Counted from the stretch's first letter, positions 7,258 through 59,857 are shown. The stretch is 64,000 nt of DNA from an uncultured Candidatus Saccharibacteria bacterium (GCA_964550955.1 CAZKAF010000003.1:7489-71488), one strand, 5' to 3'. Notes: generated from the sequence alone by a model not told the origin. A program made the numbers and translations.

Positions 7258-7260
7258 GTG

Positions 7261-7347
7261 CGGAGGAGGTGAGATTCGAACTCACGGGCCCCGTAAAGGG
7301 CCTTCTGTTTTCAAGACAGACGCATTCGACCACTCTGCCACTCCTCC
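7261..7347 (-). tRNA. tRNA-Ser (anticodon TGA)
   Basis: reverse complement folds: acceptor ggaggag, anticodon stem tctgt/acaga with loop ctTGAaa, long variable arm aggccctttacggggccc, T-arm gtgag-ttcgaat-ctcac. Confidence 0.75.
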
Positions 7348-7427
7348 GAGTAAGACTATATATCAAAGCTGGCATTTTTTCAACTTTTTGACATACTGAG
7401 GACGAGAGCGCCAAAAAGCTTCTATTT

Positions 7428-35526: not shown

Positions 35527-36429
35527 ATGAATTTTAACTTCAAGAAAAGTCACATCAATCTCTCTTCGGAAGAATTAAGCAGCTTCCTGAAGGGCGCCGG
35601 CATCATCTGCATCGGCCTGCTATCCCTCTTCATTCTCGTCAAGACCGTCAATGAAATCAAGACGTATACGACTATCGGCAGCACGCCCGAAACCCAGAAC
35701 GTCATTTCCGTAACGGGCAAGTCCGAAATGTTCATCAAGCCCGACATCACCACGTTTTCATGGACTGTCGACGGCGAGGGAAGGACCGTGGAAGCTGCTC
35801 AGACTGCGGCTTCAGAAAAAGGCAACAAGGCAATCGCATTTTTGAAAGAGAAGGGCATCAAGGAGGCGGATATCAAGACTACCAATTATTATACGAGCAC
35901 AAAATATGACACGCAGGTTCGTCCATGCGCCGTCTCCCGGCCGGCATCTCCCGCGATTGACGAGGCTCCCGACACGGCCGTCTCATCCGCGCCCATGATT
36001 GCCCCTTGCTCGAATACCGATCAGGTCGCGGTAGGCTACACGGTGCAGCAGACCGTCGAGGTCAAGGTTCGGAACGTCAACGACTATCCGAATCTGACAA
36101 GCGAGCTCGTCGCCGGCCTCGGCTCGATCGGAGCGAAAGTTTCGAATCCTTACAGCACCGTGGACAATCCTGACAAGTACCAGCAGAAAGTCAGGCAGGA
36201 AGCTATCGTCAAGGCAAGAAACGAGGCGGAAGCCTTGGCAAAATCGCTTGGCGTGAAGCTCGTCAAGGTGGTAGGATACAGCGACAACTCGTATCCCGCA
36301 TACCCCATGTACGACATGGCGATGTCCGCCCGCGGTTCGGCAGGAAACATGGCCTCTCCGGCGCCTTCATTGCCCACTGGAACAAACAAGATCTCGGCCG
36401 ACGTGATGGTCACGTATCAAATTAGATAA
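35527..36429 (+). CDS. SIMPL-domain (DUF541) secreted/periplasmic protein
   Basis: N-terminal TM/signal; ISVTGKSEMFIKPDITTFSWTV...EKGIKEADIKTTNYY pattern typical of SIMPL. Confidence 0.55.
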   Translation: MNFNFKKSHINLSSEELSSFLKGAGIICIGLLSLFILVKTVNEIKTYTTIGSTPETQNVISVTGKSEMFIKPDITTFSWTVDGEGRTVEAAQTAASEKGNKAIAFLKEKGIKEADIKTTNYYTSTKYDTQVRPCAVSRPASPAIDEAPDTAVSSAPMIAPCSNTDQVAVGYTVQQTVEVKVRNVNDYPNLTSELVAGLGSIGAKVSNPYSTVDNPDKYQQKVRQEAIVKARNEAEALAKSLGVKLVKVVGYSDNSYPAYPMYDMAMSARGSAGNMASPAPSLPTGTNKISADVMVTYQIR

Positions 36430-36442
36430 TACTTCCTCGAGA

Positions 36443-36470
36443 TTGACAAAATCTTTGAATCTAATACTAT
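36443..36470 (+). promoter_or_regulatory. candidate sigma70-like promoter upstream of secE (TTGACA-N16-TACTAT)
   Basis: TTGACA at 36443-36448, TACTAT at 36465-36470; a hairpin follows in the leader. Confidence 0.3.
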
Positions 36471-36498
36471 ATAGACAACAGCAAAGGCACCCGAAAGG

Positions 36499-36717
36499 GT
36501 GTTTTTGAATAGAAAATTAAACAAATATATGGCTATAAAACAATATATCAACGAAACAAAGGCTGAAATGAAGCACGTGACCTGGCCGACAAGAAAGCAG
36601 ACGGTCGCTTACTCCGCTCTCGTGGTAGTCATTTCATTGGTCGTGGCCGGATATCTCGGCCTTCTCGATTCGGCGTTCAGCACGGTCATCAAGCTCATCA
36701 TCCCGTCGTTCAACTAG
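36499..36717 (+). CDS. secE: preprotein translocase subunit SecE
   Basis: ~60-70 aa, MKHVTWPTRKQTVAYSALVVVISLVVAGYLGLLD matches SecE; upstream of nusG (possible start at 36529). Confidence 0.7.
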   Translation: MFLNRKLNKYMAIKQYINETKAEMKHVTWPTRKQTVAYSALVVVISLVVAGYLGLLDSAFSTVIKLIIPSFN

Positions 36718-36800
36718 GGGCCCGAATCTCAGAATCTGGAATGGCAAGGCGGCGTCGACAATGCAGGCAATATAAAAGTTTCAATTAACACAAAACCATC

Positions 36801-37343
36801 ATGTCAAAACAAGTACAAGGCGAGCGAAATTGGTACGCGATTCATACATATGCAGGGTATGAGAATGCGGTACTGCGAAATCTCAAGCAGCGAATCGAGT
36901 CTCTCGGCATGGAAGACAAGATTTTCAATGTCATCGTTCCCGTAGAAAAGAAAATCAAGATCAAGGCCGGCAAGCGAGTCGAGGAAGAGGAGAAAATCTA
37001 CCCCGGATACGTGCTCGTGGACATGTGCGTGACGGACGACTCGTGGTACGTCGTTCGAAACACTCCCCGAGTGACCGGCTTCGTCGGATCCGGGACAGTT
37101 CCCGTGCCGGTAGACAAGGCGGAAGTCGAGACTCTTTTCAAGAGGATGAATGCCGACAGCGTCAAGCACACCATCGACCTCGCGTCGGGCGACCTCATCA
37201 TCATTACGGACGGTCCGTTCAAGGAACTTGAGGGCAAGGTATCGGAAGTCGATACTGATCGAGGCAAGGTAAAGGTTCTCGTGTCGATGTTCGGGCGAGA
37301 AACTCCCGTCGAGCTCGATTTCTTGCAAGTTCGAAGGATGTAA
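36801..37343 (+). CDS. nusG: transcription termination/antitermination factor NusG
   Basis: WYAIHTYAGYEN N-terminus and C-terminal KOW region; conserved secE-nusG-rplK order. Confidence 0.85.
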   Translation: MSKQVQGERNWYAIHTYAGYENAVLRNLKQRIESLGMEDKIFNVIVPVEKKIKIKAGKRVEEEEKIYPGYVLVDMCVTDDSWYVVRNTPRVTGFVGSGTVPVPVDKAEVETLFKRMNADSVKHTIDLASGDLIIITDGPFKELEGKVSEVDTDRGKVKVLVSMFGRETPVELDFLQVRRM

Positions 37344-37394
37344 GGTATCGTACTGCTTAAGGCCAGCTCGCTCGCGCTTCTACTTGTCGAAATG

Positions 37395-37432
37395 GTCATA
37401 AATTAAACAAAAGGCTCGGCCCGTCAGGGCAT
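37395..37432 (+). terminator. terminator-like hairpin after nusG
   Basis: cggccc-gtcagggcattt-gggccg + TTTT. Confidence 0.5.
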
Positions 37433-37479
37433 TTGGGCCGTTTTAAGAACTAAGATTCAGGCTAAAACAATACAAATTT

Positions 37480-37902
37480 ATGGCAAAGAAAATAATCAAA
37501 CAGCTCAAGCTCCAGATTCCTGCAGCTAAGGCGACTCCTGCTCCGCCTATCGGTCCCGCGCTAGGTCAGGCCGGCATTCCTATCGGCGAATTCGTGAAGA
37601 AATTCAACGACGCCACTGCTCAGATGGCAGGGGACATCATCCCGACTGTCATTACGGTTTATGAAGACCGGTCTTACGACTTCGTCCTCAAGACTCCTCC
37701 TGCCGCGAACCTCGTCAAGAAGGCCGTCGGCATCGAGTCAGGTTCGGGAACTCCGAACAGCAAGAAGGCGGGCAAAATTACCAAGGCTCAGGTCCGGGAA
37801 ATCGCAGAGAAGAAGATGCCCGACCTTAATGCCAAGGACATCGAAGGCGCTATCAAGATGATCGAAGGCACGTGCCGGTCTCTCGGGGTAGAGGTGGTGT
37901 AA
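37480..37902 (+). CDS. rplK: 50S ribosomal protein L11
   Basis: [43 protein letters not shown] is the L11 signature. Confidence 0.9.
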
Positions 37903-37917
37903 ATCTCCAAATCAATT

Positions 37918-37965
37918 TAGCAAAAAAAGCGCTGGCATTGCAAAAAAATGCCAGCGCTTTTTTGA
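37918..37965 (+). terminator. rho-independent terminator after rplK
   Basis: aaagcgctggcatt-gcaaaaaa-atgccagcgcttt + TTTTT. Confidence 0.7.
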
Positions 37966-38125
37966 TTACATTTTAATCGAATCTTTGGTAAAAGACTTAT
38001 GCACAATCTGATTGCGCGAATGAGCTTGCTAATGCGGCTGCCGCGCTATAAACTTAAATCAATATCTAGCCGTCTCGTCCATAAAGCATCCATGAAGATA
38101 TTGCATGGATTGCCTCAAAAATTAA

Positions 38126-39172
38126 ATGATTTCTCGCGTATCGAAATACATAATGCTGTCCGCCTTGATTTTAATAATCGGCGCGGCGTTCTCGGCTTTC
38201 AGGCCCGCGCAGACAGAGGCCCAGGGAAGTGCAGGGAGCGACCCTCAGCTAGTCGGTTGGTCTTGGTCATCTAATATAGGCTGGATATGCTTCAGCGGCT
38301 CAACGGTCCCTGATTGTCCCGGAGCAAGAGTAACTTTTTCGCCCGCTTCCGGGGCAGGCGAGAGGATGCTTTCGGGCTGGGCATGGTCGAATAACATAGG
38401 GTGGATAAAATTCGGAGGGTTATCCTCTTTGCCTGCCGGCGGCACAAATGCAAAATATGATCCAGCAAATGGAAGGATAACTGGATTTGTTCGGGCATGC
38501 GCCGGAACTGTAAATGAGGATTGCAACAGCGCGACGAGAACTGACGGATGGGACGGATGGATATCCCTCGGAAATCTGGGTGATCCTCGGTACGGGCTCA
38601 AGGTCGATCTGGCGACGAAAAAAGTAGTTGGCGCGAATGCCCTGTCATATGGCTGGGCATGGGGTTCAACGGTCGTCGGCTGGATAAGATTCGATGACAT
38701 GAAGGTGGAGGGCGAATTGGAAAATCCAGGCGGACAATGCGCGTTTACGGATATAAACGGATCTTCCCAGGTCTTGTCGGACGGACAGTCGCTTGTTGTT
38801 CCTGATGCTTCATGCGCAGGGCGGACGCATACGTATTCGTGCGCTTGCACGAGCGGCACTTGTTCCCCTTCGGTGAGTTCGGCGGGCACAGCTTGCGTTG
38901 ACGATTCCGTCGCCTCCTGCACGCTGCCCGGTTCTGCGGTCCCTCCGGCCACTCTTCCGTCCGGCGAAACGGCTGTCAGGTACTCGAGAAATCAAGTTCG
39001 CGCCGGCCTGTCCTGCTCAGCTTTCAGGGCATCGCTCGTTTGCCGTCCGGGATCCGGAGAAGAGGCCTCGGTGCTCGGCTTTGAAACGCTCCCTGTTTCT
39101 CCAGCATCGCAAAACGTCGCCGATTACGTCTACTCCGAGTGCAGGCCTCTTCCTTCGTACATCGAATCATAA
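38126..39172 (+). CDS. secreted Cys-rich protein with G-W-x-W-S-x-N-I-G-W-I-x-F repeats (family A, copy 1)
   Basis: signal peptide; repeats VGWSWSSNIGWICFSG / SGWAWSNNIGWIKFGG / YGWAWGSTVVGWIRFDD; C-terminal ...ECRPLPSYIES shared with 41593-42678. Confidence 0.55.
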   Translation: MISRVSKYIMLSALILIIGAAFSAFRPAQTEAQGSAGSDPQLVGWSWSSNIGWICFSGSTVPDCPGARVTFSPASGAGERMLSGWAWSNNIGWIKFGGLSSLPAGGTNAKYDPANGRITGFVRACAGTVNEDCNSATRTDGWDGWISLGNLGDPRYGLKVDLATKKVVGANALSYGWAWGSTVVGWIRFDDMKVEGELENPGGQCAFTDINGSSQVLSDGQSLVVPDASCAGRTHTYSCACTSGTCSPSVSSAGTACVDDSVASCTLPGSAVPPATLPSGETAVRYSRNQVRAGLSCSAFRASLVCRPGSGEEASVLGFETLPVSPASQNVADYVYSECRPLPSYIES

Positions 39173-39186
39173 TTCTAACGACAAAC

Positions 39187-39531
39187 ATGAACATGCGATA
39201 CAATATTAATGATAAAAAGGGAGTTTCAAGGACGACGAAGACCGTCGCGCTGTATTCGGCGGTCACGATATTCTTCGGCCTGCTGCTCGGCGCGCTTTAC
39301 TTCTGGACGCTTTCTCCTCGCGTTCAGGACTCGTCTCCTCCCTCGGGAGACACGTGGTCTGAAGAGGATGCGCGGGAAAAGGAAATAATTTTAAATCAAA
39401 TCAGGCAGGATGCCGAAGACAGGGAAACGCTGGGGGCGGAAGCTTCTAAAGCCAAGGAAGACGCGCTTCGATTGATTCGAAGGGATTCGGAGACAAGGGA
39501 AGTTGAAATCGAGGATGCTGGTCAAATTTAA
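39187..39531 (+). CDS. small single-TM protein (family B, copy 1), partner of the family A protein
   Basis: SRTTKTVALYSAVTIFFGLLLGALYFW TM closely matches 42698-43021; acidic C-terminal tail. Confidence 0.5.
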   Translation: MNMRYNINDKKGVSRTTKTVALYSAVTIFFGLLLGALYFWTLSPRVQDSSPPSGDTWSEEDAREKEIILNQIRQDAEDRETLGAEASKAKEDALRLIRRDSETREVEIEDAGQI

Positions 39532-39556
39532 AAGCAGGATTAGCAATTAACATCAC

Positions 39557-40405
39557 ATGATTATTATGAAAAAACTGAATTCAAGCATGCGCAATAGCAT
39601 GATATGCAAAAGCCTTTATCAAAATGGCCGTCAGATCGCAAGTACCGTTTTAGTGGCGGCATTGACGCTCGTCGTTTTCGGATACGGCAATTCCTTCGCT
39701 CAAACCTGGTCCGCGCCGACAGGGACCGCTCCTGGCGGGAATACCCCCGCTCCGCTCAATCTCGGATCAGCTCTTCAGGAAAAGCTCGGACCCTTGGCCA
39801 TCAACACGAGCACCGTATCTCCGGCGTCCGTGGGACTGAATGTGTTCGGCAAGTCAAACTTTCATGGGCAGATTTTAGGCAAAGATGACGTATGCATCGA
39901 AGTCGATGGCGACATACGATGCTTAAGCGACGCTCTGGAGGAAGACGAGCCTGTGGTTGTCGTCCCTCCTACTTCAAGCTGTACGCAGTTATATACGTCG
40001 TTGGGTACTGGTACTCAGGTTGATCTCAGGCCGGGATGGACGTCAGTTGCGGTTCCAGCCGCCTGCAAAACGGTTACCGGATGTCTCTTGAAGCAGGAGG
40101 CGGTTCATAATAACTCAAACAACAACAAGACATTGATTTACAGGCATTTCCAGAATACCTCGACGGGCGTTTGGAGTAATGATTGGAGGCCGACGAAATC
40201 ATTTACCAACGGCGACTCGACAGTTACGCACGTGTTTCCAATGAGGCATGACGGTCATCTTGTGATTGTGGACGACAGACCGAGCATAGCCAACAACATA
40301 AATGGGGTAAAGCAAACGCTAAACTATGCCGAGACTTCAAAAGACAATATCTCAATCAGAGACACTTCCGGCGTATGGGGGACTAAGCTAAGCGTTTGCC
40401 AGTAA
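39557..40405 (+). CDS. secreted hypothetical protein (AQTWSAP... N-terminal family)
   Basis: signal peptide then AQTWSAPTGTAPGGNTPAPLNLGS; the N-terminal mature region resembles those of 43076-43429 and 43452-44567. Confidence 0.45.
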   Translation: MIIMKKLNSSMRNSMICKSLYQNGRQIASTVLVAALTLVVFGYGNSFAQTWSAPTGTAPGGNTPAPLNLGSALQEKLGPLAINTSTVSPASVGLNVFGKSNFHGQILGKDDVCIEVDGDIRCLSDALEEDEPVVVVPPTSSCTQLYTSLGTGTQVDLRPGWTSVAVPAACKTVTGCLLKQEAVHNNSNNNKTLIYRHFQNTSTGVWSNDWRPTKSFTNGDSTVTHVFPMRHDGHLVIVDDRPSIANNINGVKQTLNYAETSKDNISIRDTSGVWGTKLSVCQ

Positions 40406-40418
40406 GATTGGCCCTTGG

Positions 40419-40865
40419 CTATTTCTTGCCGCTGCTTCCGAAAGCCCCGGTTCCGCGTTCCGATTCGTTGAGCTCGTCAGCTTCGATTATCTCAACCGTC
40501 TCCACGGGCATGATGAGCATCTGGATAATCTTGTCTCCTGCTTCGAACGTGTACGGCATGTCAGTCAGATTCATCAATCCTGCGTGAAGCTCGCCCCGAT
40601 ATCCGGAGTCGATGACTCCTCCGAAAGACTTGAGCCCGTGCTTGTGCGAAAGGCCGCTCTTGTCGAGCAGCAGGCCGGCGTATCCGTATGGAATCTCCAG
40701 GGCGATGCCCAAAGGGATAGACTTCCTTTCTCCCGGTTCGATTGTCAGGGAGACCGGCGTATAGAGGTCAAAACCGGCGTCGCCGTAATGCGCATACTGG
40801 GGGATTCGGGCATCCGGATGAACCTTCTTTATTTTGAGCTTGCGTGCTTCGGTCATGTTTTCCAA
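40419..40865 (-). CDS. dut: dUTP diphosphatase
   Basis: 148 aa; GDAGFDLY, GLLLDKSGL, GVIDSGYRGE motifs of trimeric dUTPase. Confidence 0.85.
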   Translation of the reverse strand: MENMTEARKLKIKKVHPDARIPQYAHYGDAGFDLYTPVSLTIEPGERKSIPLGIALEIPYGYAGLLLDKSGLSHKHGLKSFGGVIDSGYRGELHAGLMNLTDMPYTFEAGDKIIQMLIMPVETVEIIEADELNESERGTGAFGSSGKK

Positions 40866-40869
40866 TAGC

Positions 40870-41490
40870 TTAATACTTTTCCACTTCCTTGTCCAAGACG
40901 ACCAGTTCCACTGCCGCTTCTTGGAAAACGCGCTTCGTCTGAACGGATGCCTGATAGTCTTTTTGCGCCACGACTCGCACGACGCCGGCGTTTATGATCA
41001 GCTTGGCGCAGACATAGCAAGGAACCATCTTGCAGTAAAGGTCCGCTCCCTTTACCGAGTTGCCGACCTTGGCTGCCTGGATCAGGGCGTTCTGTTCCGC
41101 ATGCACCGTCCGTATGCAATGCATCGTCTCCCTGCCGTCATCGTGGGTTACTTTGTGCATCTCATGCCCGACTTCGTCGCAATGGGGAAGTCCTGCCGGC
41201 GATCCGACATAGCCCGTCGTGATTATTCTCCTGTTCTTGACTATGATGGAACCGGATTTCCCTCGGTCGCAAGTTCCGCGGCTGCCGACTATTTCGCAAA
41301 TGGACATGAAGTACTCGTCCCAAGAAGGCCGGGCCGTTTTTGCAGCGGGCGTCTGCGTCTTGGGCATTTTGGCCTCAGGCTTTCGCGCCTTCGGGGCAAT
41401 TTTTTTCGCCAGCCCGCCTCGGGATGATTTCAAGCTGGTCTTTGCCGGCGCGGTGACGCCTCTGCTCGCCAGTTTTTTAGGATTTTTCAT
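40870..41490 (-). CDS. dCMP deaminase (ComEB-like) with Lys/Ala/Pro-rich N-terminal extension
   Basis: zinc-binding HAEQNAL and PCYVCAKLI motifs; ~45-aa basic N-terminal tail (alternative internal start MPKTQ at ~41367). Confidence 0.8.
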   Translation of the reverse strand: MKNPKKLASRGVTAPAKTSLKSSRGGLAKKIAPKARKPEAKMPKTQTPAAKTARPSWDEYFMSICEIVGSRGTCDRGKSGSIIVKNRRIITTGYVGSPAGLPHCDEVGHEMHKVTHDDGRETMHCIRTVHAEQNALIQAAKVGNSVKGADLYCKMVPCYVCAKLIINAGVVRVVAQKDYQASVQTKRVFQEAAVELVVLDKEVEKY

Positions 41491-41592
41491 TGCGCCCTAA
41501 TTATAGCTCAAATGGGGTTCATGTGTGTAACTTGATATTTACGCCAGATGTTATGTGGTAGAATTTAAGCATTAGCTATTTAAATCATTTAA

Positions 41593-42678
41593 ATGAAGAG
41601 AATTAAAAACATAATATTCGCAATGGTCCTGGTGCTGATTGCCGTGACGGCATCTCAGCTTTTCGCGCCTGAGGCAAACAAGGCAGAGGCACAAGGGTCG
41701 CCTCTCGTCGGCAAGCGGCTCGTCGGATACGCCTGGTCCGCGAATGTCGGCTGGATTTCGTTTAACGAGGCCTCGACGGCCGTAACCATTGATTCTGACT
41801 TGGCATTGAAGGGTTTTGCCTGGTCTCCAAGCATCGGCTGGATCAAGTTCGGTGGTCTGGATCGCAGGACGTCGTCATTCCTCGGGCTTACCGGTGATGC
41901 TAAAGTATACGGTCAGTCAGGTGCGGCAGGATTTCTGGGCGGTTATGCTCGAGCCTGCAACGGCATGCCTTCTTCCTCGGTTGCCAGTTGCGATGCTAAG
42001 GATTTTTTAGATGCCTCCCTTGTGTCGGAAAATGGAGGCTGGGACGGGCTCATACAACTGGGCAAGGTCACGGGCACGAGTAACCATCCTTATTCAGGCG
42101 GAACGTACGGCATCACCATAGCTTCGGACGGGACAACCTTGATTGGACAAGGCGGCAGAGGCAAGCCGTTTGCCTGGGGAGGGGACATCTTCGGCTGGAT
42201 AAGCTTTGAGAACGTCTCTGTCAGGTCTCAGAGCGAGTTCTGCGTCATTCCTACGACTGAAGGCGGAATAGTGATGGTCGGCCAGACGAAGGCTTCGGTT
42301 TCAAGGACGGGCGATACGTGCAGCGAATCTGTCTGGTCATGCCCGGTAGGCGGTCAGCCGGCAGTTCAGGTAGGGGCTTCAACGGAAGTTGATTGTAGCG
42401 ACGACGATGACGACGATGACTTTGCCGTGCCGTTCAACTGTACTCACGCAGGCTCCTTTGTCGGCGGCGGGGAAGAGGTCACTCTCTTCTCCAGGTCTCA
42501 GGTGCGAGCCGAGCAGTCTTGTTCAGATTATTCGGCCACTCTCAGATGCGAGAGGGTCGCAAATGACAATCCGGTCGGACAAATGGAGATAATTGCTCCG
42601 AATGCTCATCTTGGGGACGAGGCTCAGAATTACAAATATCAAGGATGCCGCGCGTTTCCTTCGTATATTGAACAATAA
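41593..42678 (+). CDS. secreted Cys-rich protein with G-[YF]-AWS-x-N/S-[IV]GWI-x-F repeats (family A, copy 2)
   Basis: repeats VGYAWSANVGWISFNE / KGFAWSPSIGWIKFGG / FAWGGDIFGWISFEN; poly-Asp stretch; C-terminal ...GCRAFPSYIEQ. Confidence 0.55.
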   Translation: MKRIKNIIFAMVLVLIAVTASQLFAPEANKAEAQGSPLVGKRLVGYAWSANVGWISFNEASTAVTIDSDLALKGFAWSPSIGWIKFGGLDRRTSSFLGLTGDAKVYGQSGAAGFLGGYARACNGMPSSSVASCDAKDFLDASLVSENGGWDGLIQLGKVTGTSNHPYSGGTYGITIASDGTTLIGQGGRGKPFAWGGDIFGWISFENVSVRSQSEFCVIPTTEGGIVMVGQTKASVSRTGDTCSESVWSCPVGGQPAVQVGASTEVDCSDDDDDDDFAVPFNCTHAGSFVGGGEEVTLFSRSQVRAEQSCSDYSATLRCERVANDNPVGQMEIIAPNAHLGDEAQNYKYQGCRAFPSYIEQ

Positions 42679-42697
42679 TTAGCACAGCATAATATAT

Positions 42698-43021
42698 ATG
42701 TCATATAACATGGAAAACAATAACGGAGCGTCAAGGACAGTCAAAACGATTATCCTGTATTCGGCCATAATCGTATTCTTCGGCGTCCTGCTCGGATCTG
42801 TATATTTCTTCGCAAGCCGGCCCGTGGTAGTGGACGAGGGGGAGATGCAGAACATCAGGGATTCCTGGACGCAGGAACAAAGAGATATCTATGAAGTGAA
42901 TCTGTATGAAATCGACCCTGATCTTGTCTTCGAGAGCGAAGAAGACATTCAGGCTTATATCGACAGCCATATACCGCCAGAATACACGGATGAAGAGGAT
43001 GCTGGCGGGGCTGCTCGGTAG
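42698..43021 (+). CDS. small single-TM protein (family B, copy 2)
   Basis: SRTVKTIILYSAIIVFFGVLLGSVYFF TM; acidic C-terminus; paralog of 39187-39531. Confidence 0.5.
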   Translation: MSYNMENNNGASRTVKTIILYSAIIVFFGVLLGSVYFFASRPVVVDEGEMQNIRDSWTQEQRDIYEVNLYEIDPDLVFESEEDIQAYIDSHIPPEYTDEEDAGGAAR

Positions 43022-43075
43022 AGCGTGGGAAAAATCGCCAATATTAAATTAGCTTATTAAAATTAAAAACAACGT

Positions 43076-43429
43076 ATGAAAAAACAAATTAAAGAAACAA
43101 TGTATGGGTTCGTTCTGGCAGTGATATTGCTTGGAGGCGCAAACTTCGTGTATGCGCAGTCCTGGTCGGCAACATGGAACCCGGCTCCTTCTCAGGTGCC
43201 TCCAGCTTCGACCAATGTTCCTGCCCCTATCAACACCGGTCCTACTACCCAGATTAAAAATGGTTCGTTCATTGTCAGCGGCACATTTACTACGCTCGGA
43301 AACATCCTCATGTCCGGCGGCTTGAGAATTTCAACCGGCGCCGGCAACGGAAAAGTTCTCACTTCGAATGCGACAGGCGTCGCTACATGGCAAGAGCTTC
43401 CGGCTGCCTGTGTCGCTGCTTCAAATTAG
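43076..43429 (+). CDS. small secreted protein (AQSWSA... family)
   Basis: signal peptide, AQSWSATWNPAPSQVPPAS; contains ...GNGKVLTSNATGVATW, a fibre-like motif also present in the next gene. Confidence 0.45.
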   Translation: MKKQIKETMYGFVLAVILLGGANFVYAQSWSATWNPAPSQVPPASTNVPAPINTGPTTQIKNGSFIVSGTFTTLGNILMSGGLRISTGAGNGKVLTSNATGVATWQELPAACVAASN

Positions 43430-43451
43430 CCTAGCCCGATAACCAAAAAAT

Positions 43452-44567
43452 ATGAAACTAAATATCCTTAAAAAAACGCAGACGTATCATATCCTTCTTT
43501 GGGTGCTGTTCTTCGCTGCTGGTTCGCAGGTAGTGCTTTCTTTTACAGATACGACCATCTCGCCGCCGACTGCTGCCGGTCAATCGGTACCGAGCATTAA
43601 GTATCCCGTAATGTCGGCTACGACGACCGCGACCCAGACGAAATCGGGAGGGCTTACCATCCATAACGGAAACTTTGAGGTAAAGGGCCTCACTACGCTG
43701 TCCGGACCGGTCACGATCGTTGCAGGTTCTCCTGGAATAGGAAAGGTTCTTGTTTCAGACGGTGATGGCAACGGACGATGGGCGTCGCTTGTCGTCAACG
43801 ATGCCGTCGTCAACGCTTGCCGAAGGCAGACCGAAAGCACTAACGGTTCCCAGAGGGTATCCATGTCCACCAGGACATACAAGAATGCTGCTGGTCAGCA
43901 TGTCTGGGATTTGCAGAGAGGCGGAACGGGAAAGCCTTGGTATAATGGCACCAGCAGGAAATTTCCAGCCAACGGCACTCATCTCATAGGCCGGGAAGCC
44001 TGCGTGTATTATTACTATCAAGTTCAGTCCGGCGGATCTGAGGCATATCGCTATTGCGACGGCGTCGATGTCAGAGTCAGCGCGAAAAATGAAAGCTGGG
44101 GCGACTGCACTGGCCAGGCATATGGCTTAAATGGCACGTATGCGAAAGACAAGAATGACTGCGGAGGAAACGGCGCCGCCTCGGCGGTCTGTCGGGAGGT
44201 GAATTTCAATTATGTCTACAAAACAGCCGCAGACTGCACGAATGGTTCGGGCACGGTCGGAATGGGTCATTATACCGGGACAGCTGCCGCTGCCGTGACC
44301 GACACGACGGTAAGTTCGTCTCCTATCATACCGTGCAACATGAAATTCTATCCGAAGTGGGAATGTCCTGCGGATAATGCCACGTACAGGTTCTCGAAGG
44401 AACCCAATCTTTCGACCGGAAAATGTACCAGAACCAAGATATCCAATAACCAGACAGCGGAAGTCAATGCCGTGAAGCCTGGCGCAATAAAGCAATGCAA
44501 TGTTGCGGGAGGATGGACTCCGTTTCGCGTGACGGGACGATGCATCGGAGGGACGGTTACGAATTAG
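43452..44567 (+). CDS. secreted Cys-rich hypothetical protein (same N-terminal family)
   Basis: signal peptide; ...GSPGIGKVLVSDGDGNGRWAS motif; many Cys in the C-terminal half. Confidence 0.45.
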   Translation: MKLNILKKTQTYHILLWVLFFAAGSQVVLSFTDTTISPPTAAGQSVPSIKYPVMSATTTATQTKSGGLTIHNGNFEVKGLTTLSGPVTIVAGSPGIGKVLVSDGDGNGRWASLVVNDAVVNACRRQTESTNGSQRVSMSTRTYKNAAGQHVWDLQRGGTGKPWYNGTSRKFPANGTHLIGREACVYYYYQVQSGGSEAYRYCDGVDVRVSAKNESWGDCTGQAYGLNGTYAKDKNDCGGNGAASAVCREVNFNYVYKTAADCTNGSGTVGMGHYTGTAAAAVTDTTVSSSPIIPCNMKFYPKWECPADNATYRFSKEPNLSTGKCTRTKISNNQTAEVNAVKPGAIKQCNVAGGWTPFRVTGRCIGGTVTN

Positions 44568-44617
44568 TTTAATATTGCCGGTTGTCGTCAATGACGACAG
44601 GATAAAAGCCGCTGATT

Positions 44618-44650
44618 CATACCAGCGGCTTTTATGTTTGCGGGTTCTCG
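44618..44650. terminator. bidirectional terminator hairpin between convergent genes
   Basis: aaagccgctg-attcatacc-agcggctttt with T-runs on both strands. Confidence 0.55.
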
Positions 44651-44715
44651 CTCTGTCCGTGCGGTTCAAGTTGCGCAATCTGCGCCCGATCAAAATTTAT
44701 TTAGCCAGGAGAAAT

Positions 44716-46074
44716 TTAGCTTTTCTTCACGATGTCCTGAGCGCCTCGCTTGATGTCCCATTCGTCTTCGGACATGTCGGCATGGAGCTGAATCTGCGGA
44801 ATGATTGACTTCAGGTATGCGGACATCTGCTGCGCCACGACCCTGAGCGTCGGGTGAACGGTCTGGCTTGCCCGAAGTTCCGATACGTATACCGTTTGAG
44901 GGAGGCTGTACGTTACCTCGCAGGCGATGGCAAATCCCATGGCTATGTAGTATTGCCTGACATACTCATCGCAGTTCAGACTGCTGATTTTTTCAGCCTG
45001 ATTCTTGATGGCCGTTTCGACCTCTTCCCTGAGCCCTGCCGGAAGCTGTTCCAGATACCAAGGCAGGAAGCCGTGATTTGTCGTAAGAAGAGGCATTTCG
45101 GAGATTCCGTTCCTGTGTCTTTGGATATCCCTGAATGATCCGAAGTCCAGGGGGAATTGGAAGCGGATGGAGCCGTACTTCGCGAGCTTCGCCGGAAGTT
45201 CGGTCTTTTGAGGCCGCTGTTCGAGCAGGTCGGTATGGACGCTGAGCCCTGCCAGGTCCAAGTTATGCACGGCGCTGAAGCCGGCCATGAGAGCGTTCTC
45301 TTTTCGGTCATAGAAATCGAGCTTTGAGCTCAAGTCATAAAAAGCCTCCTGTTCCGGATACAGCTTATGGCTGAAGCTGCTCGGGTATTTTGACTTAAGC
45401 GCGGTTCGGATCGTTTCGGCGATTTCTCGCACCTCGGGCAATGCATGATGCTCCATATACTTGAGGTGGTCATGCGCCTGCCTGAAGTCGGTGTGCCAGC
45501 TCGCGTATGTCGTCGCGCCGGCCGGGAGAAGCCCGCGGGCGATGTCGAACGCCTTGGCCTTGATGGCTTTTTCATACACGGTGTCTTTCTCTTCCTCTTT
45601 CTTCGGGTACTTTTCCTTGAAATGGGGAATAAGCGTTTCCAGAGCTTTGACGTACAAATTCATCCACTCCTGCTGGATGCTTTTTCCGAGCTCTTCCTGG
45701 CTCGGATCGATATCCTTGATGGGGTTCAAGACCTTTTGCGATGCCATATCCAGATATCGGGTGCTGGCTTCCTGCCCCCTGTAGAGCTGCCAATCCTGCA
45801 ATGCCTTGGCAGCCAGCATGCTGACGTTCTCTATGAAAAGCGTGGTGCTGCCGCAGTCGCCGATGCTCTTGTGCCCGTATCCTACATAAAAAGTATCCAT
45901 GAACTTCTCATATCCGACTTCGGAAATCTTCTGCAGGTGGTTGACCACGCTTTGGGGCGATCGCGAATAAAGAGCCTGGGCCATCGCTGTCGCTTCAGGA
46001 TGGAGGCCGTCAACGATAAATACTTCCGAGCCTTCCTTGGTCACGGCGTCGGGCTTGATGCTTGTTTGGTTCAT
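44716..46074 (-). CDS. thyX: FAD-dependent thymidylate synthase ThyX-like, apparent tandem-duplicated (pseudo-dimeric) form
   Basis: N-terminal half has the ThyX-like GYGHKSIGDCGSTTLFIENVSMLAAKALQDWQLYRGQEASTRY but lacks RHR; C-terminal half has FRDIQRHRNGISE (RHR motif); genomic context with dut, dCMP deaminase, glyA and tmk. Confidence 0.5.
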   Translation of the reverse strand: MNQTSIKPDAVTKEGSEVFIVDGLHPEATAMAQALYSRSPQSVVNHLQKISEVGYEKFMDTFYVGYGHKSIGDCGSTTLFIENVSMLAAKALQDWQLYRGQEASTRYLDMASQKVLNPIKDIDPSQEELGKSIQQEWMNLYVKALETLIPHFKEKYPKKEEEKDTVYEKAIKAKAFDIARGLLPAGATTYASWHTDFRQAHDHLKYMEHHALPEVREIAETIRTALKSKYPSSFSHKLYPEQEAFYDLSSKLDFYDRKENALMAGFSAVHNLDLAGLSVHTDLLEQRPQKTELPAKLAKYGSIRFQFPLDFGSFRDIQRHRNGISEMPLLTTNHGFLPWYLEQLPAGLREEVETAIKNQAEKISSLNCDEYVRQYYIAMGFAIACEVTYSLPQTVYVSELRASQTVHPTLRVVAQQMSAYLKSIIPQIQLHADMSEDEWDIKRGAQDIVKKS

Positions 46075-46204
46075 GGCTCAATTGTACCAAATACAACGCC
46101 CGTGCAAATGCAGTTTCCGGCCTTGTTCATGGCCCTTTAAATCCGCTTTACGGGCTTTCTGAAAAAGACGTATAATTAGCGCACCTTAACCATACATCAA
46201 ACCA

Positions 46205-47482
46205 ATGAAAGACATACAAATAAAGAAACTGATCGAGGCTGAAAAGAAGAGGCAGAAAGGAGTCATCAATCTCATCGCTTCCGAAAACTATTGCTCGGCA
46301 GACGCGCTCGAGGCTCTCGGTTCGGTGTTCGACAACAAGTATGCGGAGGGATATCCTCATGCGCGGTACTACGGAGGGAATCAGGTCGTCGACGAGCTTG
46401 AGGTGCTTGCTCAGACGCGCGCCTTGAAGCTCTTCGGCCTCGACTCCGGGGTTCACAAGGACAGCAAGGCTCCGCTCAAGAGCAAATGGCACGTGAATGT
46501 TCAGCCCTGGTCGGGCGCGAACGCTAACTTGGCAGCATATCTTGGGGCGGTGCCAATCGGATCGAAAATCATGGGCATGGCCCTTTCATCGGGAGGGCAT
46601 CTTTCTCATGCGCAAAAAGTCTCCATTACGGGAAAAGTTTGGCAGCCGGTTTCTTTCGTCGTCAATCCGGACACCGAAGTTCTCGATTACGATTACGTGG
46701 AGAAACTGGCAAAGGCGGAAAAGCCCGCGCTCATCGTTGCGGGATTCACCGCGTATCCCAGGGCAGTTGATTGGGCGCGATTCAGGAAAATAGCCGACGC
46801 ATGCGGCGCCCTTCTCATGGTGGACATGTCGCACCTTTCCGGGCTTGTGGCAGGCAAAGCGTATGCAAGCCCTTTTCCATATGCTGACATCGTGACGACG
46901 ACTACTCATAAGACGCTTCGGGGTCCGCGAGGGGCAATAATATTTTCCAGGATAGATTCCCGGGAGCTTCACAAGAAAATAGACAAGGCTCTTTTCCCGG
47001 GCCTTCAGGGCGGTCCGCATGAAAGCCAAGTTGCAGGCATCGCGGTGGCGCTCAAGGAAGCGGATCAGGCTTCATTCAGGGCCTACGCGAAGCAGGTCAT
47101 CAAGAATGCAAAAGTGCTTGCGAAGGAGCTTCAGAAAAAAGGGTGGCATGTAGTTTCCGGCGGCACGGACAGCCATATGGTCCTTGTCGACACGTGGATG
47201 GGCGGAGAGAAGGTAAGCGCCGAGACCGCGAAGAAGAAAAAACTTGGCAAGGATGCCGCGGGCGCCGGGGCAGTGCCTGGCAAAGCGGCGGAGCTTGCTC
47301 TCGAAAAGGCAGGCATTATCTGCAATAAGAACACGGTGCCGGGAGAGACTCGGTCGCCGTTTGATCCGTCGGGCATCCGGCTTGGAACTCCGGCAGAAAC
47401 CACGAGAGGGAAGAAAGAGGCGGACTTCAGGAAGATAGCCGAAAAGATAGACGCGGCGTTGAGAAAGGCCGATTATTCATAA
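46205..47482 (+). CDS. glyA: serine hydroxymethyltransferase
   Basis: N-terminus ...LIASENYCSADALEALGSVFDNKYAEGYP and PLP-lysine context TTTTHKTLRGPRG. Confidence 0.9.
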   Translation: MKDIQIKKLIEAEKKRQKGVINLIASENYCSADALEALGSVFDNKYAEGYPHARYYGGNQVVDELEVLAQTRALKLFGLDSGVHKDSKAPLKSKWHVNVQPWSGANANLAAYLGAVPIGSKIMGMALSSGGHLSHAQKVSITGKVWQPVSFVVNPDTEVLDYDYVEKLAKAEKPALIVAGFTAYPRAVDWARFRKIADACGALLMVDMSHLSGLVAGKAYASPFPYADIVTTTTHKTLRGPRGAIIFSRIDSRELHKKIDKALFPGLQGGPHESQVAGIAVALKEADQASFRAYAKQVIKNAKVLAKELQKKGWHVVSGGTDSHMVLVDTWMGGEKVSAETAKKKKLGKDAAGAGAVPGKAAELALEKAGIICNKNTVPGETRSPFDPSGIRLGTPAETTRGKKEADFRKIAEKIDAALRKADYS

Positions 47483-51697: not shown

Positions 51698-53719
51698 ATG
51701 TTTAAATTTATAAAAAATACAGCCCTTTTCTTATCAGCACTCGCTATCTTCTTTTCAGCTTTGAGCTCCGGTCAGGCATCCGCAGCGACTTGTTACAATA
51801 TCCCTGCAAATATCAGGCCGGGAGACAAGACCGCCGACGTCAGGATGCTTCAGAATTTCCTAATAGAAAGTGGCTATCTCAGGGGCAACGCTGACGGCGC
51901 ATACGGGCCCCTGACCAAAGAAGCCGTGCTGGCATTCCAGCAGTCAAGAAATCTCGTATCGAACCCGGCCGGCTTCGTGGGCGCGGGAACAAGGCAGCAA
52001 ATAAGGGATATCTCATGCGGCACGTCAACGCCTCTCGCGAATCTTCCGCTTACGAATCCTGCGGTCGCCATCAACAACACGTCTCCGTCATATCAGCAGA
52101 CTCAGTATCTTCAGCCGAACGTCTCGACATGCCAGCCCGGAATGCTATTCAACATAATGACCGGCTTGCCATGCGTAAATGCAAATTCCGTCGTTCAATA
52201 CACGAGCGTTCCGGGATGCACCGGCACTAATCTCTTCAGCACCGTTACGGGCCGGAGATGCGCTGACGGACCGCAGGCCCCTGTCACGACGACGCTTCCT
52301 CCGGGCTGCGCTGTCGGCGCGAACTTCAGCATCACGACGGGCTTGCCCTGCTCAAATTTCGTGGACCCTTGGGATTATAACTTGAACAACAACGCGAATA
52401 ACTCAATTTCAGGCAGGCCGGACTTGACGATTTCGAACGTGCTTTGCAGTCCCGTTTCGCCTGCGGTGAACGAATCAGTCTCATGCACGATTACCGTATA
52501 TAACGCCGGCAGGAGCGGCATCGACCAGCCATTCGGCATTTCAGTCAATGGCAATTATCATTCGGTGACTTCGTCGATGTCTGCTTACTCGTCGAGAACG
52601 ATTACTGTTCCAAATGCGTTTTCGCTGGGATACGGAACGACTACGGTCACGTTTGCCGTGGATTCCAACAATACAGTCGAAGAAGAAAACGAGGGGAACA
52701 ACGTCCATACTCGAACGTTCCACATACAGCCGCTGGCTCCCGTCGATCTTACTCAGAACTATTCGACGCCGGCATGTCCTTACACGTTCTCAAGCACCCT
52801 TGAGCTCGGCTCTCGAGGACAGGACGTGATCGCTTTGCAAAATTTCCTGAAGAAATTCGGATTCTACGCAGGCAATTCGCACGGTTCGTTTGATAATGCG
52901 ACGAAGCTGGCCCTTACCGCATATCAGGCAAACAGAAGCATCTCTCCGGCAGACGGTTCTTTCGGCGCCTCCACTCGGGCTTCAGTGAACGCTTCCTGCG
53001 CGTCAGGCTCGACATCCGTTTCCATTTCAGGAAACTTGAGGCTTGAGCTCGGCTCAACGGAGGTGTACAAGAAAACGCCGGCTCGCGTCGCTTGGTACAG
53101 CAGCAACAATGTCATCCCTCAAAACAACACCATGACCATGGAAGTCTTCAGGGTATCCGACAATCAGTACATGAGCGTAAAGGATACGGGCAGGTTCAAC
53201 GCGACTGTGGGTTCGGTCACGATTCCCGCATCGCTTCCTGCCGGTCAATACAAGCTGGTAGTTTCAACTACGGTAGCGGGGACTGTCCATAAGGCTGAGA
53301 CGCCTGCGTTCACGGTGCCTGAGGCGACAGCGGTCTTTGCCAAGCCAAGCAATCCGACGATTGCCGTAACGGGAACGACTGCTGCCACGAAGGGGCTGAC
53401 AGCCGAGTTCAAGCTCAGCATGCTGGCAAAGGGCGTCGACATTCCGCTTCTCGCGGCGAATGACATCACCGTGGTGTTCATCAATCCGAATGGAAACACG
53501 ATTTCGGCAGACAGCGTCACGGTAGCGACCGATCCGAGAAAGGCCACTGCCAGCGGCTCGACTGCCCAGGTGACAATTACCGCGAAGATTTCGGGGAGCA
53601 AGCTGATTACCAGCGGCAGTTACCGAGCGGAGCTGAAAGCTGTCCGATGGGGAAGCGCTACGGAAATTGCGAACTTCTCGGGCACATACGTGACGCCGAC
53701 TGGCGTGCAGTACCCATAA
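51698..53719 (+). CDS. secreted protein with two peptidoglycan-binding (PG_binding_1) domains and three Cys-bracketed repeats
   Basis: signal peptide; DVRMLQNFLIESGYLRGNADGAYGPLTKEAVLAFQ and GQDVIALQNFLKKFGFYAGNSHGSFDNATKLALTAYQ (PG_binding_1-like); repeats CQPGMLFNIMTGLPC / CTGTNLFSTVTGRRC / CAVGANFSITTGLPC. Confidence 0.5.
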   Translation: MFKFIKNTALFLSALAIFFSALSSGQASAATCYNIPANIRPGDKTADVRMLQNFLIESGYLRGNADGAYGPLTKEAVLAFQQSRNLVSNPAGFVGAGTRQQIRDISCGTSTPLANLPLTNPAVAINNTSPSYQQTQYLQPNVSTCQPGMLFNIMTGLPCVNANSVVQYTSVPGCTGTNLFSTVTGRRCADGPQAPVTTTLPPGCAVGANFSITTGLPCSNFVDPWDYNLNNNANNSISGRPDLTISNVLCSPVSPAVNESVSCTITVYNAGRSGIDQPFGISVNGNYHSVTSSMSAYSSRTITVPNAFSLGYGTTTVTFAVDSNNTVEEENEGNNVHTRTFHIQPLAPVDLTQNYSTPACPYTFSSTLELGSRGQDVIALQNFLKKFGFYAGNSHGSFDNATKLALTAYQANRSISPADGSFGASTRASVNASCASGSTSVSISGNLRLELGSTEVYKKTPARVAWYSSNNVIPQNNTMTMEVFRVSDNQYMSVKDTGRFNATVGSVTIPASLPAGQYKLVVSTTVAGTVHKAETPAFTVPEATAVFAKPSNPTIAVTGTTAATKGLTAEFKLSMLAKGVDIPLLAANDITVVFINPNGNTISADSVTVATDPRKATASGSTAQVTITAKISGSKLITSGSYRAELKAVRWGSATEIANFSGTYVTPTGVQYP

Positions 53720-58500: not shown

Positions 58501-59285
58501 GGCCGATATCCCTTTTCGTGGACGACATATCGACATGGTATCTTCGAAGGTCCCGAGACAGGTTCAAGGGCGACGATGGGCAAGACAGGCAATTCGCCAT
58601 AGACACGACGAGGTTCGCGCTTCTGACCGTCTCGAAGCTTCTCGCCCCGTTCGTGCCGTTCATGGCAGAGCACATGTACCAGAATTTGAAGAAAGATATT
58701 TCGGAGGCGAGCTCGGCCCTCGCCATAACGATGCCTGAAAGCGTGCATTTGTGCGATTGGCCCATGCTTCCGCAGGCGGACAGCGCGCTCGTCGATTCGA
58801 TGGAGTCTCTTCGAAAGCTCGTCGAAAGCGGCTTGGCGCTCAGGTCAAAGGCCGGCATCAAGGCTCGGCAGCCGCTCGCTTCGTTCACGTATGACGCGGA
58901 CGAGCTGGTTCTCGCGGACGAGCTCGTCGAAATCATGGCCGATGAATTAAACGTGAAGAAAGTATCGGCCGGCACTGAAATTTCGCTCGATACCAGCCTG
59001 ACCAAGGAATTGAAAGACGAGGGCCTCGTCAGGGACGTGATTCGTTCCGTGCAGGAGGGCCGAAAAATCGCCGGACTTAATCCGGGCGATCCCATAATCC
59101 TTTCGCTCGGTTCTGATTCCGAGACTCGGGAAATCCTGAAGTCTCATGCGCAGATGATACGGAAGCCCGTGCTCGCGGAAGACATGCTGTTTGTCGAGCT
59201 GGACGCCGATTCGAATCATGTGCTCGAAACTGATTCTGCAAAGATAAGCATCAGCATCAATGTCCCATCACATCTATCAGACTAA
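55566..59285 (+). CDS. ileS: isoleucine--tRNA ligase (eukaryote-like type) with inserted histidine-phosphatase domain
   Basis: HYGH (HIGH) motif, WGWDCHGLPIE, KMSKS; a ~210-aa insert begins with LLMRHGESESN and ends with ...VTHGLPLRL, sitting between IGSVAELKEK and DLHRPFIDEV. Confidence 0.9.
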   Translation: MAEQTNPKPQTEVHAGDALKTVSAQREEAVLSFWQKNHIFEKSLKKDSPKGNFVIFDGPPYATGLPHYGHMLPSTIKDIIPRYKTMQGYFAPRRWGWDCHGLPIENLIEKQLGLRDKKAIEEYGIGNFNKAAKDSVFGYDKDWKRIIRRVGRWVDMENDYHTMDSSYTESVWWSFKALNEKGLVYDAFKVMPYCPRCETSLSNFEVGQGYRDIPDISAYVLFPVLGTDGKQTEENFLAWTTTPWTLPGNAALALNPELEYVLVKAKTSAGSALVWVAKDLVEKLASKGILQKPEAGDAAADAGSELSALKTARGSELSGLSYAAPFDFYAAAGSMSSDQEPKRRNAWKSYAADFVTAEDGTGIVHVAPAFGDDDSKLAQANHVPVIQHVERNGQLAPGLGNLSGLQAKAKGDHQSTDIEVIKLLAHSTTSSGNPLLFAKEKLVHSYPHCWRCETPLLNYATASWFVEVTKIKDRLIEANDGVNWVPKEVGEGRFGKWLENARDWAVSRTRYWGAPLPVWKGEKTGRVEFIGSVAELKEKISSNGNSFLLMRHGESESNTKNVINSSARDLDLHPLTETGKTQVELSVRSIKERQEKTGRRITKIYASDFRRTRETAERTAEALGLDPAEIVFDARLREVNAGDFDAGPWSARFESFDGLHDALFKKCPNGESVFDVKKRATEFLYDIEAKHQDEDVLIVTHGLPLRLMLCAAEGKTARDLLRSGWRDYSDPLASIHECDFKPLPHNEDFELDLHRPFIDEVTWIAKTPSGETEIMRRIPDVFDVWYDSGSMPFAQNHYPFEGKEEFEKKGSVLFPADFISEGIDQTRGWFYSLMVLSVALFGKSPYRNVTVSGLILAEDGRKMSKSLKNYPDLEPTLEKYGADSLRFMLASSPATHAEEVLFSEKSLDEVNKKIFNRLENVYSFYKMYAAEGLEGETLSADSAPQSAHVLDRWILSRLSELKSDIERNLDLYQIDKAVRPISLFVDDISTWYLRRSRDRFKGDDGQDRQFAIDTTRFALLTVSKLLAPFVPFMAEHMYQNLKKDISEASSALAITMPESVHLCDWPMLPQADSALVDSMESLRKLVESGLALRSKAGIKARQPLASFTYDADELVLADELVEIMADELNVKKVSAGTEISLDTSLTKELKDEGLVRDVIRSVQEGRKIAGLNPGDPIILSLGSDSETREILKSHAQMIRKPVLAEDMLFVELDADSNHVLETDSAKISISINVPSHLSD

Positions 59286-59844: not shown

Positions 59845-59857
59845 TATACTTTTGCAT

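Follow-up and report, generated by a model that had tools for sequence, protein, structure and literature searches.

Two arrays of genes for secreted-type proteins lie within a 64,000-nucleotide stretch of DNA from an uncultured Candidatus Saccharibacteria bacterium (GCA_964550955.1, CAZKAF010000003.1:7489-71488), the whole of which is referred to here as the window. Each array encodes a Trp-rich W protein (WA in array A, WB in array B), a small bitopic membrane protein and one or two members of a fibre-like family termed AQ (AQ1 in array A, AQ2 and AQ3 in array B). We consider there to be an even chance that these arrays are two anciently diverged copies of an operon-like surface module, conserved across Paceibacteria (Minisyncoccia; Patescibacteria), which displays fibres or adhesins. 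The conserved ends and hypervariable remainder of the proteins, the tight co-directional pairing of their genes, the signals for general secretory (Sec) export, the even numbers of Cys residues and the fibre domains of relatives together point to an extracytoplasmic module. All seven open reading frames proposed in an earlier reading of this DNA from its sequence alone (hereafter the sequence-only reading) were found in their places (Table 1), and the genes within each array are separated by gaps of 14–54 bp.

The W proteins share an N-terminal domain built on an aromatic repeat. WA, which has 14 Cys residues, consists of a signal peptide, this W domain, a Cys-rich beta domain, a C-terminal region modelled with low confidence and a C-terminal tail. 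Three to four copies of a repeat of about 16 residues had been described in each protein; the strict motif, G[WYF][AS]W[SG]x[NS][IV][GV]WIxF, is indeed present: each W protein has two copies, and the rest of the 64-kb window, translated in six frames, shows no others, while the remaining two units are degenerate or split by a Cys loop (the degenerate copy in WB reads FAWGGDIFGWISF). In the window proteins the split copy has the form G[FY][VA]RAC...DGWDG[WL]I.L, with a loop of 15–25 residues. In alignment A1, which combines WA (itself a row of A1) with its paralogue WB and 65 database homologues, the same copy reads G[WF]xRACAGTxNGDCxS..RTDGW-DGWIxL. The invariant positions of A1 are G84, W87, G92, W93, F96, G120, R123, G141, W142, D143, G144 and W179 (WA numbering); C125 and C133, a conserved pair of loop cysteines near the DGWDGW segment that would presumably form a disulfide, are nearly invariant. 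The codons for GWIxF and WSxNIGWI also surface as DNA repeats.

Structure prediction changes the picture of these repeats as stand-alone units. In the AlphaFold2 (AF2) model of WA obtained with A1, they are the four beta-hairpins of one discrete domain of about 155 residues, placed directly after the signal peptide. The predicted strand pairs (41-48/52-56, 80-88/92-96, 117-126/144-149 and 177-180/186-195) give one hairpin per repeat, with additional strands between repeats, in a fold that is predicted to be all-beta. The predicted local distance difference test score (pLDDT) is 83–95 for most 10-residue blocks of residues 41-250, dips to 68 at residues 131-140, within the Cys loop, and is low for the last ~90 residues. 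A beta-propeller or a beta-helix had been suggested as the fold to look for; the prediction returned the all-beta four-hairpin domain, and no propeller was matched significantly.

The view that the repeat matches no recognised family held up in every comparison made. WA and WB matched 0 families of Pfam-A and NCBIfam at E ≤ 1 (hmmscan), the A1 profile matched 0 PDB sequences at E ≤ 10 (hmmsearch), and a Foldseek search of the W domain against PDB and BFVD gave nothing below E = 7e-3, the best PDB matches being non-significant ones to beta-propellers. The W proteins show neither a hidden Markov model (HMM) match to the propeller repeat families (Kelch, WD40, YWTD and others) nor a significant structural superposition on a closed propeller, have no HMM match at E ≤ 1 to the wall-binding modules CW_binding_1, ChW, SLH, CWB2, LysM, PG_binding and SH3b, and match no PHROG family above noise. 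WA and WB both carry the features by which the new family is defined, namely four GWAWSxNIGWIxF hairpins, a RAC..C..DGWDGW loop and an x-E-x tail. A database protein identical to WA (P0001) is within the top 150 matches of the profile, though WA itself is in the query alignment.

Several known wall-binding modules offer points of comparison. In choline-binding repeats, which occur in bacteria without an outer membrane, aromatic residues form the ligand pockets. Like these repeats (CW_binding_1; LytA, CbpA), the W domain has short Trp/Tyr/Gly-rich beta-hairpin units, Sec export and variable partner domains. It differs from them in having exactly four hairpins with a period of ~40 residues in one closed domain, where choline-binding proteins have a solenoid of 20-residue units that is open-ended, and in its disulfide loop, its DGWDGW segment, its usually N-terminal position and the lack of any sequence match at E ≤ 1. 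With SLH and CWB2, the three-repeat anchoring modules of S-layer and surface proteins, it shares a fixed, small number of internal repeats in one compact domain, many paralogous surface proteins and diverse passengers; SLH is helical and CWB2 alpha/beta, whereas the W domain is predicted to be all-beta and has no Pfam match. The aromatic hairpin repeats, the acidic and aromatic DGWDGW segment and the occurrence of the domain in multiple copies make it look like a binding module.

The W repeat is no novelty private to this genome; it marks a very large, class-wide family with a conserved gene neighbourhood. The search of public proteins with a profile, suggested in the sequence-only reading, was carried out as a full HMMER scan of 1.84 billion representatives of 50% identity clusters of public data, and yielded 9,328 matches at E ≤ 1e-3 and 7,125 at E ≤ 1e-10. 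A word-index search with WA retrieved at least 406 homologues, all unnamed or labelled ‘hypothetical’, from Nomurabacteria, Paceibacterota and Parcubacteria. At least 529 W loci were found in a set with one genome per GTDB species, and the best 80 of these all come from metagenome-assembled genomes of Patescibacteria type, one of which bears a Flavobacteriaceae label. The latter locus (L079, JBLHQB010000009.1; Patiriisocius sp.) has the gene order fusA-AQ-W-small-tuf-rpsJ, and this Paceibacteria-type arrangement indicates that it is probably mis-binned. Most homologues align over the N-terminal 45–60% of the query only and carry other C-terminal domains, including PKD, the Ig-like PF25788, TSP1 and Flg_new_2. 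Up to 5 W domains are found in one protein, as is typical of binding modules; the giant proteins P0165 (2,159 aa), P0166, P0167 and P0179 have 3–5 of them, in tandem or dispersed.

The second conserved element of the W proteins is their extreme C-terminus. WA and WB end as had been noticed, in C-R-x-[LF]-P-S-Y-I-E, which is the local form of a family-wide [PS]-x-hydrophobic-x-E-x-COOH tail. The consensus is [PS]-x-[IVFY]-x-E-[IFRQ]-COOH, and the penultimate Glu is present in 73% of 313 W proteins vs 4.5% of 776 neighbouring non-W proteins. About 10% of W proteins end instead in WxE[IVL]xP followed by 0–2 residues, most often F. The proteins stop 1–5 residues past the conserved Glu and have no C-terminal hydrophobic helix; sortase (LPXTG), exosortase and rhombosortase signals are absent from them, and the sorting-domain models of NCBIfam gave no match. 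Conservation of both ends around a hypervariable middle, with the tail at the exact C-terminus in 73–83% of W proteins, is what would be expected if the tail of one subunit entered the W domain of the next, by donor-strand or tail-in-groove contact, to build a new head-to-tail filament bearing the fibres. We regard such a polymer as very unlikely: the argument for it is purely architectural, the tail has a pLDDT below 50 in the AF2 model and does not dock within its own chain, and proteins with several W domains and a single tail fit it poorly.

Some W genes are followed by the gene for a small membrane protein. Such a protein is encoded by the next gene on the same strand for 23 of the 91 W genes; it has 89–132 residues, with a single transmembrane helix close to the N-terminal end and an ectodomain that is charged, and acidic in about half of the cases, both window copies included. 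Sequence similarity among these proteins is low, and Pfam searches with them returned only noise. Amphipathic units of the type [ST]xxE(K/R)xxI(I/L)xxL, often two or three in tandem, are a feature of their ectodomains and occur at 0.9 per 100 aa as against 0.16 in control small proteins; in the window there is one canonical unit in copy A and none in copy B. In protein A the transmembrane helix is followed by an acidic region with a REKEIILNQI-type amphipathic motif, and the start given for its gene in Table 1 is also the one chosen by a gene caller in a public assembly.

The AQ proteins begin with a common part and then diverge. After a Sec-type signal peptide, alignment A2 shows (A/Q)(T/S)W(T/S)xP...PPxxNxxAP(I/L)NxG...QxKxGxL, in which P, N, P, Q, K and G are each conserved in at least 90% of members. 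The conserved module spans approximately the first 40 mature residues, and beyond ~60 mature residues the sequences are unrelated; AQ1 has a unique C-terminal part with 7 Cys residues, and AQ3 a basic C-terminal head with 12. Two motifs had been ascribed to all three window proteins. AQ(T/S)WSA is present in AQ1 and AQ2 and missing from AQ3, and GxGKVL[TV]S[ND]..G...W is present in AQ2 and AQ3 and missing from AQ1; we take the latter hairpin (GKVLTSD..G...W) to be a motif of tail-fibre-like proteins. The family pattern (a signal peptide plus [AQ][ST]?W[ST]xP..PPxxNxxAP[IL]NxG..QxKxG) is found in the window proteins, in AQ3 only partially. Compared in pairs, the three resemble one another weakly and at the N-terminus only (E = 5e-6, 0.005 and none), and a jackhmmer profile built from related loci joins them all, AQ2 at 5e-46, AQ3 at 1.5e-18 and AQ1 at 2.4e-15, grouping them with 53 others. 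Pfam, NCBIfam and PHROG contain no model for this N-module.

It is the relatives that bear out the earlier description of these proteins as phage-fibre-like. Among 54 full-length AQ members, Pfam finds Gly_rich_2 (8), Peptidase_S74 (5; PF13884, the C-terminal intramolecular chaperone of tail fibres), Gp53-like_C, collagen, H_lectin, Gp10_C and Hint; five models of Hint/intein type (Hom_end_hint, PT-HINT, Vint, Hint and Hint_2) each match one AQ member (related loci, alignment A3). A database search with AQ2 alone (117 aa, word-index) returned 2 proteins and one with an alignment query 43, both being undercounts; 6 of the 43 have Peptidase_S74 or another tail-fibre domain, and one AQ relative is named ‘tail fiber domain-containing protein’ by NCBI. 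A conserved N-terminal module joined to unrelated C-termini is also how phage tail fibres are built. These domains, and a Phage_holin_4_2 gene 4 kb downstream of the arrays, could be read as traces of a degraded prophage or tailocin that has kept its tail-fibre genes, an origin that we hold to be extremely unlikely. Unlike phage tail fibres, AQ proteins have a Sec signal peptide, a chromosomal housekeeping setting and no baseplate partner. Conserved housekeeping synteny surrounds the arrays, the GC content is uniform (0.50–0.53), their proteins match no PHROG family above noise, and neither W relatives nor the APINVG..Q.K pattern were found in 2.9 million viral contigs (IMG/VR), whereas the same pattern finds 12 AQ genes in the fetched loci.

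The duplication of the two-gene module seen in the sequence-only reading is upheld by alignment. WA and WB align end to end with 29% identity (E = 5e-34), and the small proteins share 34% identity (E = 5e-19). The closest relative of WA is the single W gene of loci L001/L002 (40%), and that of WB is the W gene of L032 (41%). The duplication is judged to be old, because the two window copies are only 29% alike and each is nearer to the W protein of a relative. The number of copies varies between related genomes, a point that had been put forward for checking: there is one in L001-L003 and in L032, and there are two in the window. L032 holds a W-small-AQ-AQ arrangement orthologous to array B (its AQ3 orthologue has 43% identity) and nothing between rplK and dut. 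There are no signs of a diversity-generating retroelement: template and variable repeats are lacking, and apart from the codons that specify the protein repeats no long direct repeats occur in 36000-47000. Tandem DNA repeats are likewise absent from the region.

W and AQ genes are linked whichever of the two is used to select the loci. Genes were called as simple longest open reading frames, and the counts across loci ignore phylogenetic relatedness. Among the 85 loci selected by W (80 genome loci, L001-L005 and the window), 33 contain AQ genes, 56 in total. When the window and two redundant loci are left out, 53 of 53 AQ genes lie on the W strand, vs 67% for other genes. AQ genes account for 14% of the genes at offset +1 and 23% at +2 from W, and for none at -8 to -4. 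The converse set was drawn from metagenome contigs by exact match to the DNA pattern for APINVG..Q.K; among the matches listed, 15 of the 25 loci of at least 8 kb hold a W gene. The 26 W-AQ co-occurrences in this set are all on the same strand (26/26), with a gap of ≤111 bp in 18 and both gene orders represented. At least five unrelated housekeeping contexts can be distinguished: after nusA (often followed by pilB-pilC), at fusA/tuf, at pheT/gyrB, before rplJ-rplL and after rplK. The pairing is found in differing surroundings and therefore is not one inherited arrangement. The fusA-tuf placement, with W-small TM(-AQ) (TM, transmembrane) inside the str operon, is that of one clade (L019, L045, L067, L069, L072, L079 and L086, at ~6000-7600) and recurs in the metagenome loci L091, L096, L127 and L150; a location within this operon suggests high constitutive expression.

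These figures bear on the alternative that the proteins act independently at the surface, the W protein as a non-covalent wall or envelope anchor or a lectin for its own passengers, the fibres as separately anchored adhesins, with adjacency reflecting co-expression. We consider this rather unlikely. A strand identity of 100% in both sets, short gaps in most pairs and a pairing that recurs in many unrelated contexts exceed the usual yield of loose co-regulation. Independence would nevertheless explain why most W genes have neither AQ nor small-TM partners and why the tail motif is indifferent to partners; multi-copy W domains resemble avidity-type binding modules, and variable C-terminal domains such as PKD and Ig-like ones are typical passengers. 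In the window, W and AQ proteins have no C-terminal domain in common.

Another possibility, suggested by the nusA context, is that the W, bitopic and AQ proteins form a non-pilin accessory set of the type IV pilus, a tip or base complex comparable to PilY1 with minor pilins. The order nusA< W > small > AQ > pilB > pilC (> pilin) is found in L018, L026, L037, L064, L071, L082, L085 and L078, three genes with pilin motifs directly follow W in L074, and PilB is encoded near AQ in 5 metagenome loci; in this subset of genomes, Sec-exported, non-pilin, beta-rich W proteins and small membrane-anchored proteins stand beside pilB/pilC much as in PilY1/minor-pilin operons. This linkage is largely one inherited arrangement, however, and most W/AQ loci have no type IV pilus genes. 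The 64-kb window contains no pilB, pilC or gene for a class III signal peptide, and there is no Pfam match to PilY1/Neisseria_PilC or to PF07963 (N_methyl). The signals of W and AQ proteins are of the signal peptidase I type rather than G|FxxxE, and a regular-expression search of all open reading frames of the window and the loci for G|[FM]xxxE had no match among the W, AQ and small-TM proteins, nor any in the window. A pilus accessory role thus appears quite improbable to us.

As regards export, hydrophobic N-termini are present in 86 of the 91 W proteins and 51 of the 56 AQ proteins, and Sec-type N-termini together with even Cys counts in the window proteins fit export. If the arrays do encode a surface module, it might work as follows. 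The W protein would be exported by the Sec pathway as an N-terminal Trp-rich, disulfide-containing four-hairpin domain with a variable middle and the conserved tail, beside a small protein that spans the membrane once and has an ectodomain of acidic, amphipathic character, and one or two Sec-exported AQ proteins per copy, probably trimeric and tail-fibre-like, with unrelated C-terminal parts. The W domain, the C-terminal tail, the fibre N-module and the bitopic protein would keep the proteins in place at the envelope and, probably, bound to each other. The W domain may be a lectin-like or aromatic-cradle binder whose ligand is an envelope polymer and/or the proline-rich fibre N-module, and the variable C-terminal parts of W and AQ proteins would point away from the cell and attach to targets outside it, for instance particles or the surfaces of host cells. 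A role in adhesion or host interaction is suggested by these sequence features. A stronger version, in which the W, bitopic and AQ proteins together form a previously unrecognised, Patescibacteria-specific appendage, distinct from the type IV pilus, that serves Paceibacteria as their primary host-recognition device, seems distinctly unlikely; a filament or pedestal held by head-to-tail contacts of tail and W domain is one form that it might take, with exchangeable trimeric tail-fibre-like adhesins docked through the proline-rich N-module.

Several observations weigh against a shared surface module. Neither partner lies within three genes of 51 of the 91 W genes, including all 13 located downstream of a class-I aminoacyl-tRNA synthetase gene, and for ~40% of the AQ genes on long contigs a W gene is missing from the vicinity. 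In the closest relatives (L001-L003), the one W gene stands without partners between the dCMP deaminase gene and thyX or thyA. The C-terminal tail is retained with or without adjacent partner genes, and no W-AQ fusion proteins were found. The three AQ proteins of the window contain no recognised fibre domain and have no Pfam or PHROG match, and the AF2 monomer of AQ2 is extended, as could be anticipated of a fibre that is an obligate oligomer, and uninformative (predicted template modelling score 0.29), for which it was left out of the fold search. Signal peptides and transmembrane helices were assigned by eye according to hydropathy and the -3/-1 rule rather than with dedicated prediction software, and physical contact between W, bitopic and AQ proteins is putative.

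Table 1. Features of the two arrays and of their surroundings (window coordinates)
Feature	Position	Strand	Remarks
Array A	38126-40405	+	WA, small TM protein, AQ1
WA, secreted W-domain protein, 348 aa	38126..39172	+	ORF (open reading frame); homologues all unnamed/hypothetical
WA W domain, ~residues 40-195 (predicted)	38243..38710	+	alignment A1, AF2 strand pairs
WA repeat 1: GWSWSSNIGWICF	38255..38293	+	motif scan
WA repeat 2: GWAWSNNIGWIKF	38375..38413	+	motif scan, DNA repeat
WA repeat 3, split by Cys loop: GFVRAC-AGTVNEDCNSATRTDGW-DGWISL	38483..38569	+	alignment A1
WA repeat 4, degenerate: GWAWGSTVVGWIRF	38651..38692	+	alignment A1, DNA repeat
WA tail CRPLPSYIES	39140..39169	+	local form of family-wide tail
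Small bitopic membrane protein A, 114 aa	39187..39531	+	one hydrophobic helix
AQ1, fibre-family protein, 282 aa	39557..40405	+	start may be 39566 or 39587 instead
AQ1 N-module AQTWSAP...PAPLNLG..QEKLG	39698-39796	+	after signal peptide
Array B	41593-44567	+	WB, small TM protein, AQ2, AQ3
WB, paralogous W-domain protein, 361 aa	41593..42678	+	W domain at ~41713-42213
WB repeats	41725-41763, 41812-41850, 41941-42060 (split), 42169-42207	+	motif scan
WB tail CRAFPSYIEQ	42646-42675	+	
Small bitopic membrane protein B, 107 aa, pI 4.05	42698..43021	+	one hydrophobic helix; homologue in L032
AQ2, minimal fibre-family protein, 117 aa	43076..43429	+	signal peptide first
AQ2 N-module AQSWSA...PPASTNVPAPINTG..QIKNG	43154-43273	+	
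AQ2 hairpin GNGKVLTSNATGVATW	43343-43390	+	
AQ3, fibre-family protein, 371 aa	43452..44567	+	divergent N-module without AQxWSA
AQ3 hairpin GIGKVLVSDGDGNGRW	43734-43781	+	
secE-nusG-rplK unit	36499-37902		Pfam
rplK 3' hairpin, strong, intrinsic-terminator-like	37923..37963	+	17-bp stem then T run; inverted repeat I1
dUTPase	40419-40865	-	between arrays
dCMP deaminase	40870-41490	-	between arrays

The arrays lie in a housekeeping stretch of a Patescibacteria-type genome. Pfam assignments give the order secE, nusG, rplK, array A, dUTPase (-), dCMP deaminase (-), array B, thyX (-), glyA and tmk, the dut and dCMP deaminase genes lying between the module copies on the opposite strand, as first described. 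The rplK hairpin parts array A from the secE-nusG-rplK unit; in the interval after rplK (37903-38125), this terminator is followed by array A instead of rplA, and Rfam finds only sub-threshold matches there (Thr_leader, L20_leader), which correspond to the same hairpin. A promoter scan of the region was uninformative. The thyX gene, at 44716-46074 (-) in the window and also present in L001, encodes a long protein (452–465 aa); the same syntenic position is occupied by thyA and DHFR in L002 (9128-10697) and L003. Thymidylate synthase has thus been displaced non-orthologously between close relatives (thyX vs thyA + DHFR). A functional link between the module and the thymidylate genes was considered and rejected, this context being limited to the nearest relatives, with the module placed elsewhere in other clades.

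Other surface-type proteins are encoded in the window at 51698-53719 (+) and 59801-61804 (+), one with two PG_binding_1 domains and CARDB, the other with DUF11; the two PG_binding_1 domains indicate that the organism also uses a classical peptidoglycan-binding anchor. Between them, at 55566-59285 (+), lies the gene for a 1,239-aa IleRS-like class-I aminoacyl-tRNA synthetase (tRNA-synt_1, Anticodon_1, DUF5915), in which a complete His_Phos_1 domain (E = 4e-31, residues 548-723) is inserted between the halves of the catalytic domain. In other genomes, two clusters of secreted proteins of 300–440 aa without a Pfam match (c5 and c9) are encoded directly downstream of partnerless W genes, in convergent orientation (L015 7501-8676 (-), L068 3770-5095 (-) and 17 other loci).

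In the accessible literature, searched by motif strings and for unknown genes of Parcubacteria linked to pili, neither the W domain nor the tail motif nor the fibre N-module was found described. The families are undescribed ones, whereas modules for surface display or adhesion as such are known. Paceibacteria (Minisyncoccia), ultrasmall and dependent on hosts, rank with the most abundant of bacteria and with the least understood. The member first brought into culture lives as an obligate parasite of a methanogen, and its attachment has been ascribed only tentatively to type IV pili (PMC12281837). The families of proteins for which Parcubacteria show enrichment are for the most part hypothetical proteins associated with the membrane (Méheust et al., 2019; PMC6744442). 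Two such families are now named and bounded, the W domain, which counts over 9,000 clusters (50% identity), and the fibre N-module; the copies of Pfam and NCBIfam searched contain a model for neither. The two families are reciprocally linked at the gene level and set in highly expressed housekeeping operons, and they provide concrete candidates for studies of host attachment. New domain models derived from them would annotate thousands of ‘hypothetical proteins’.

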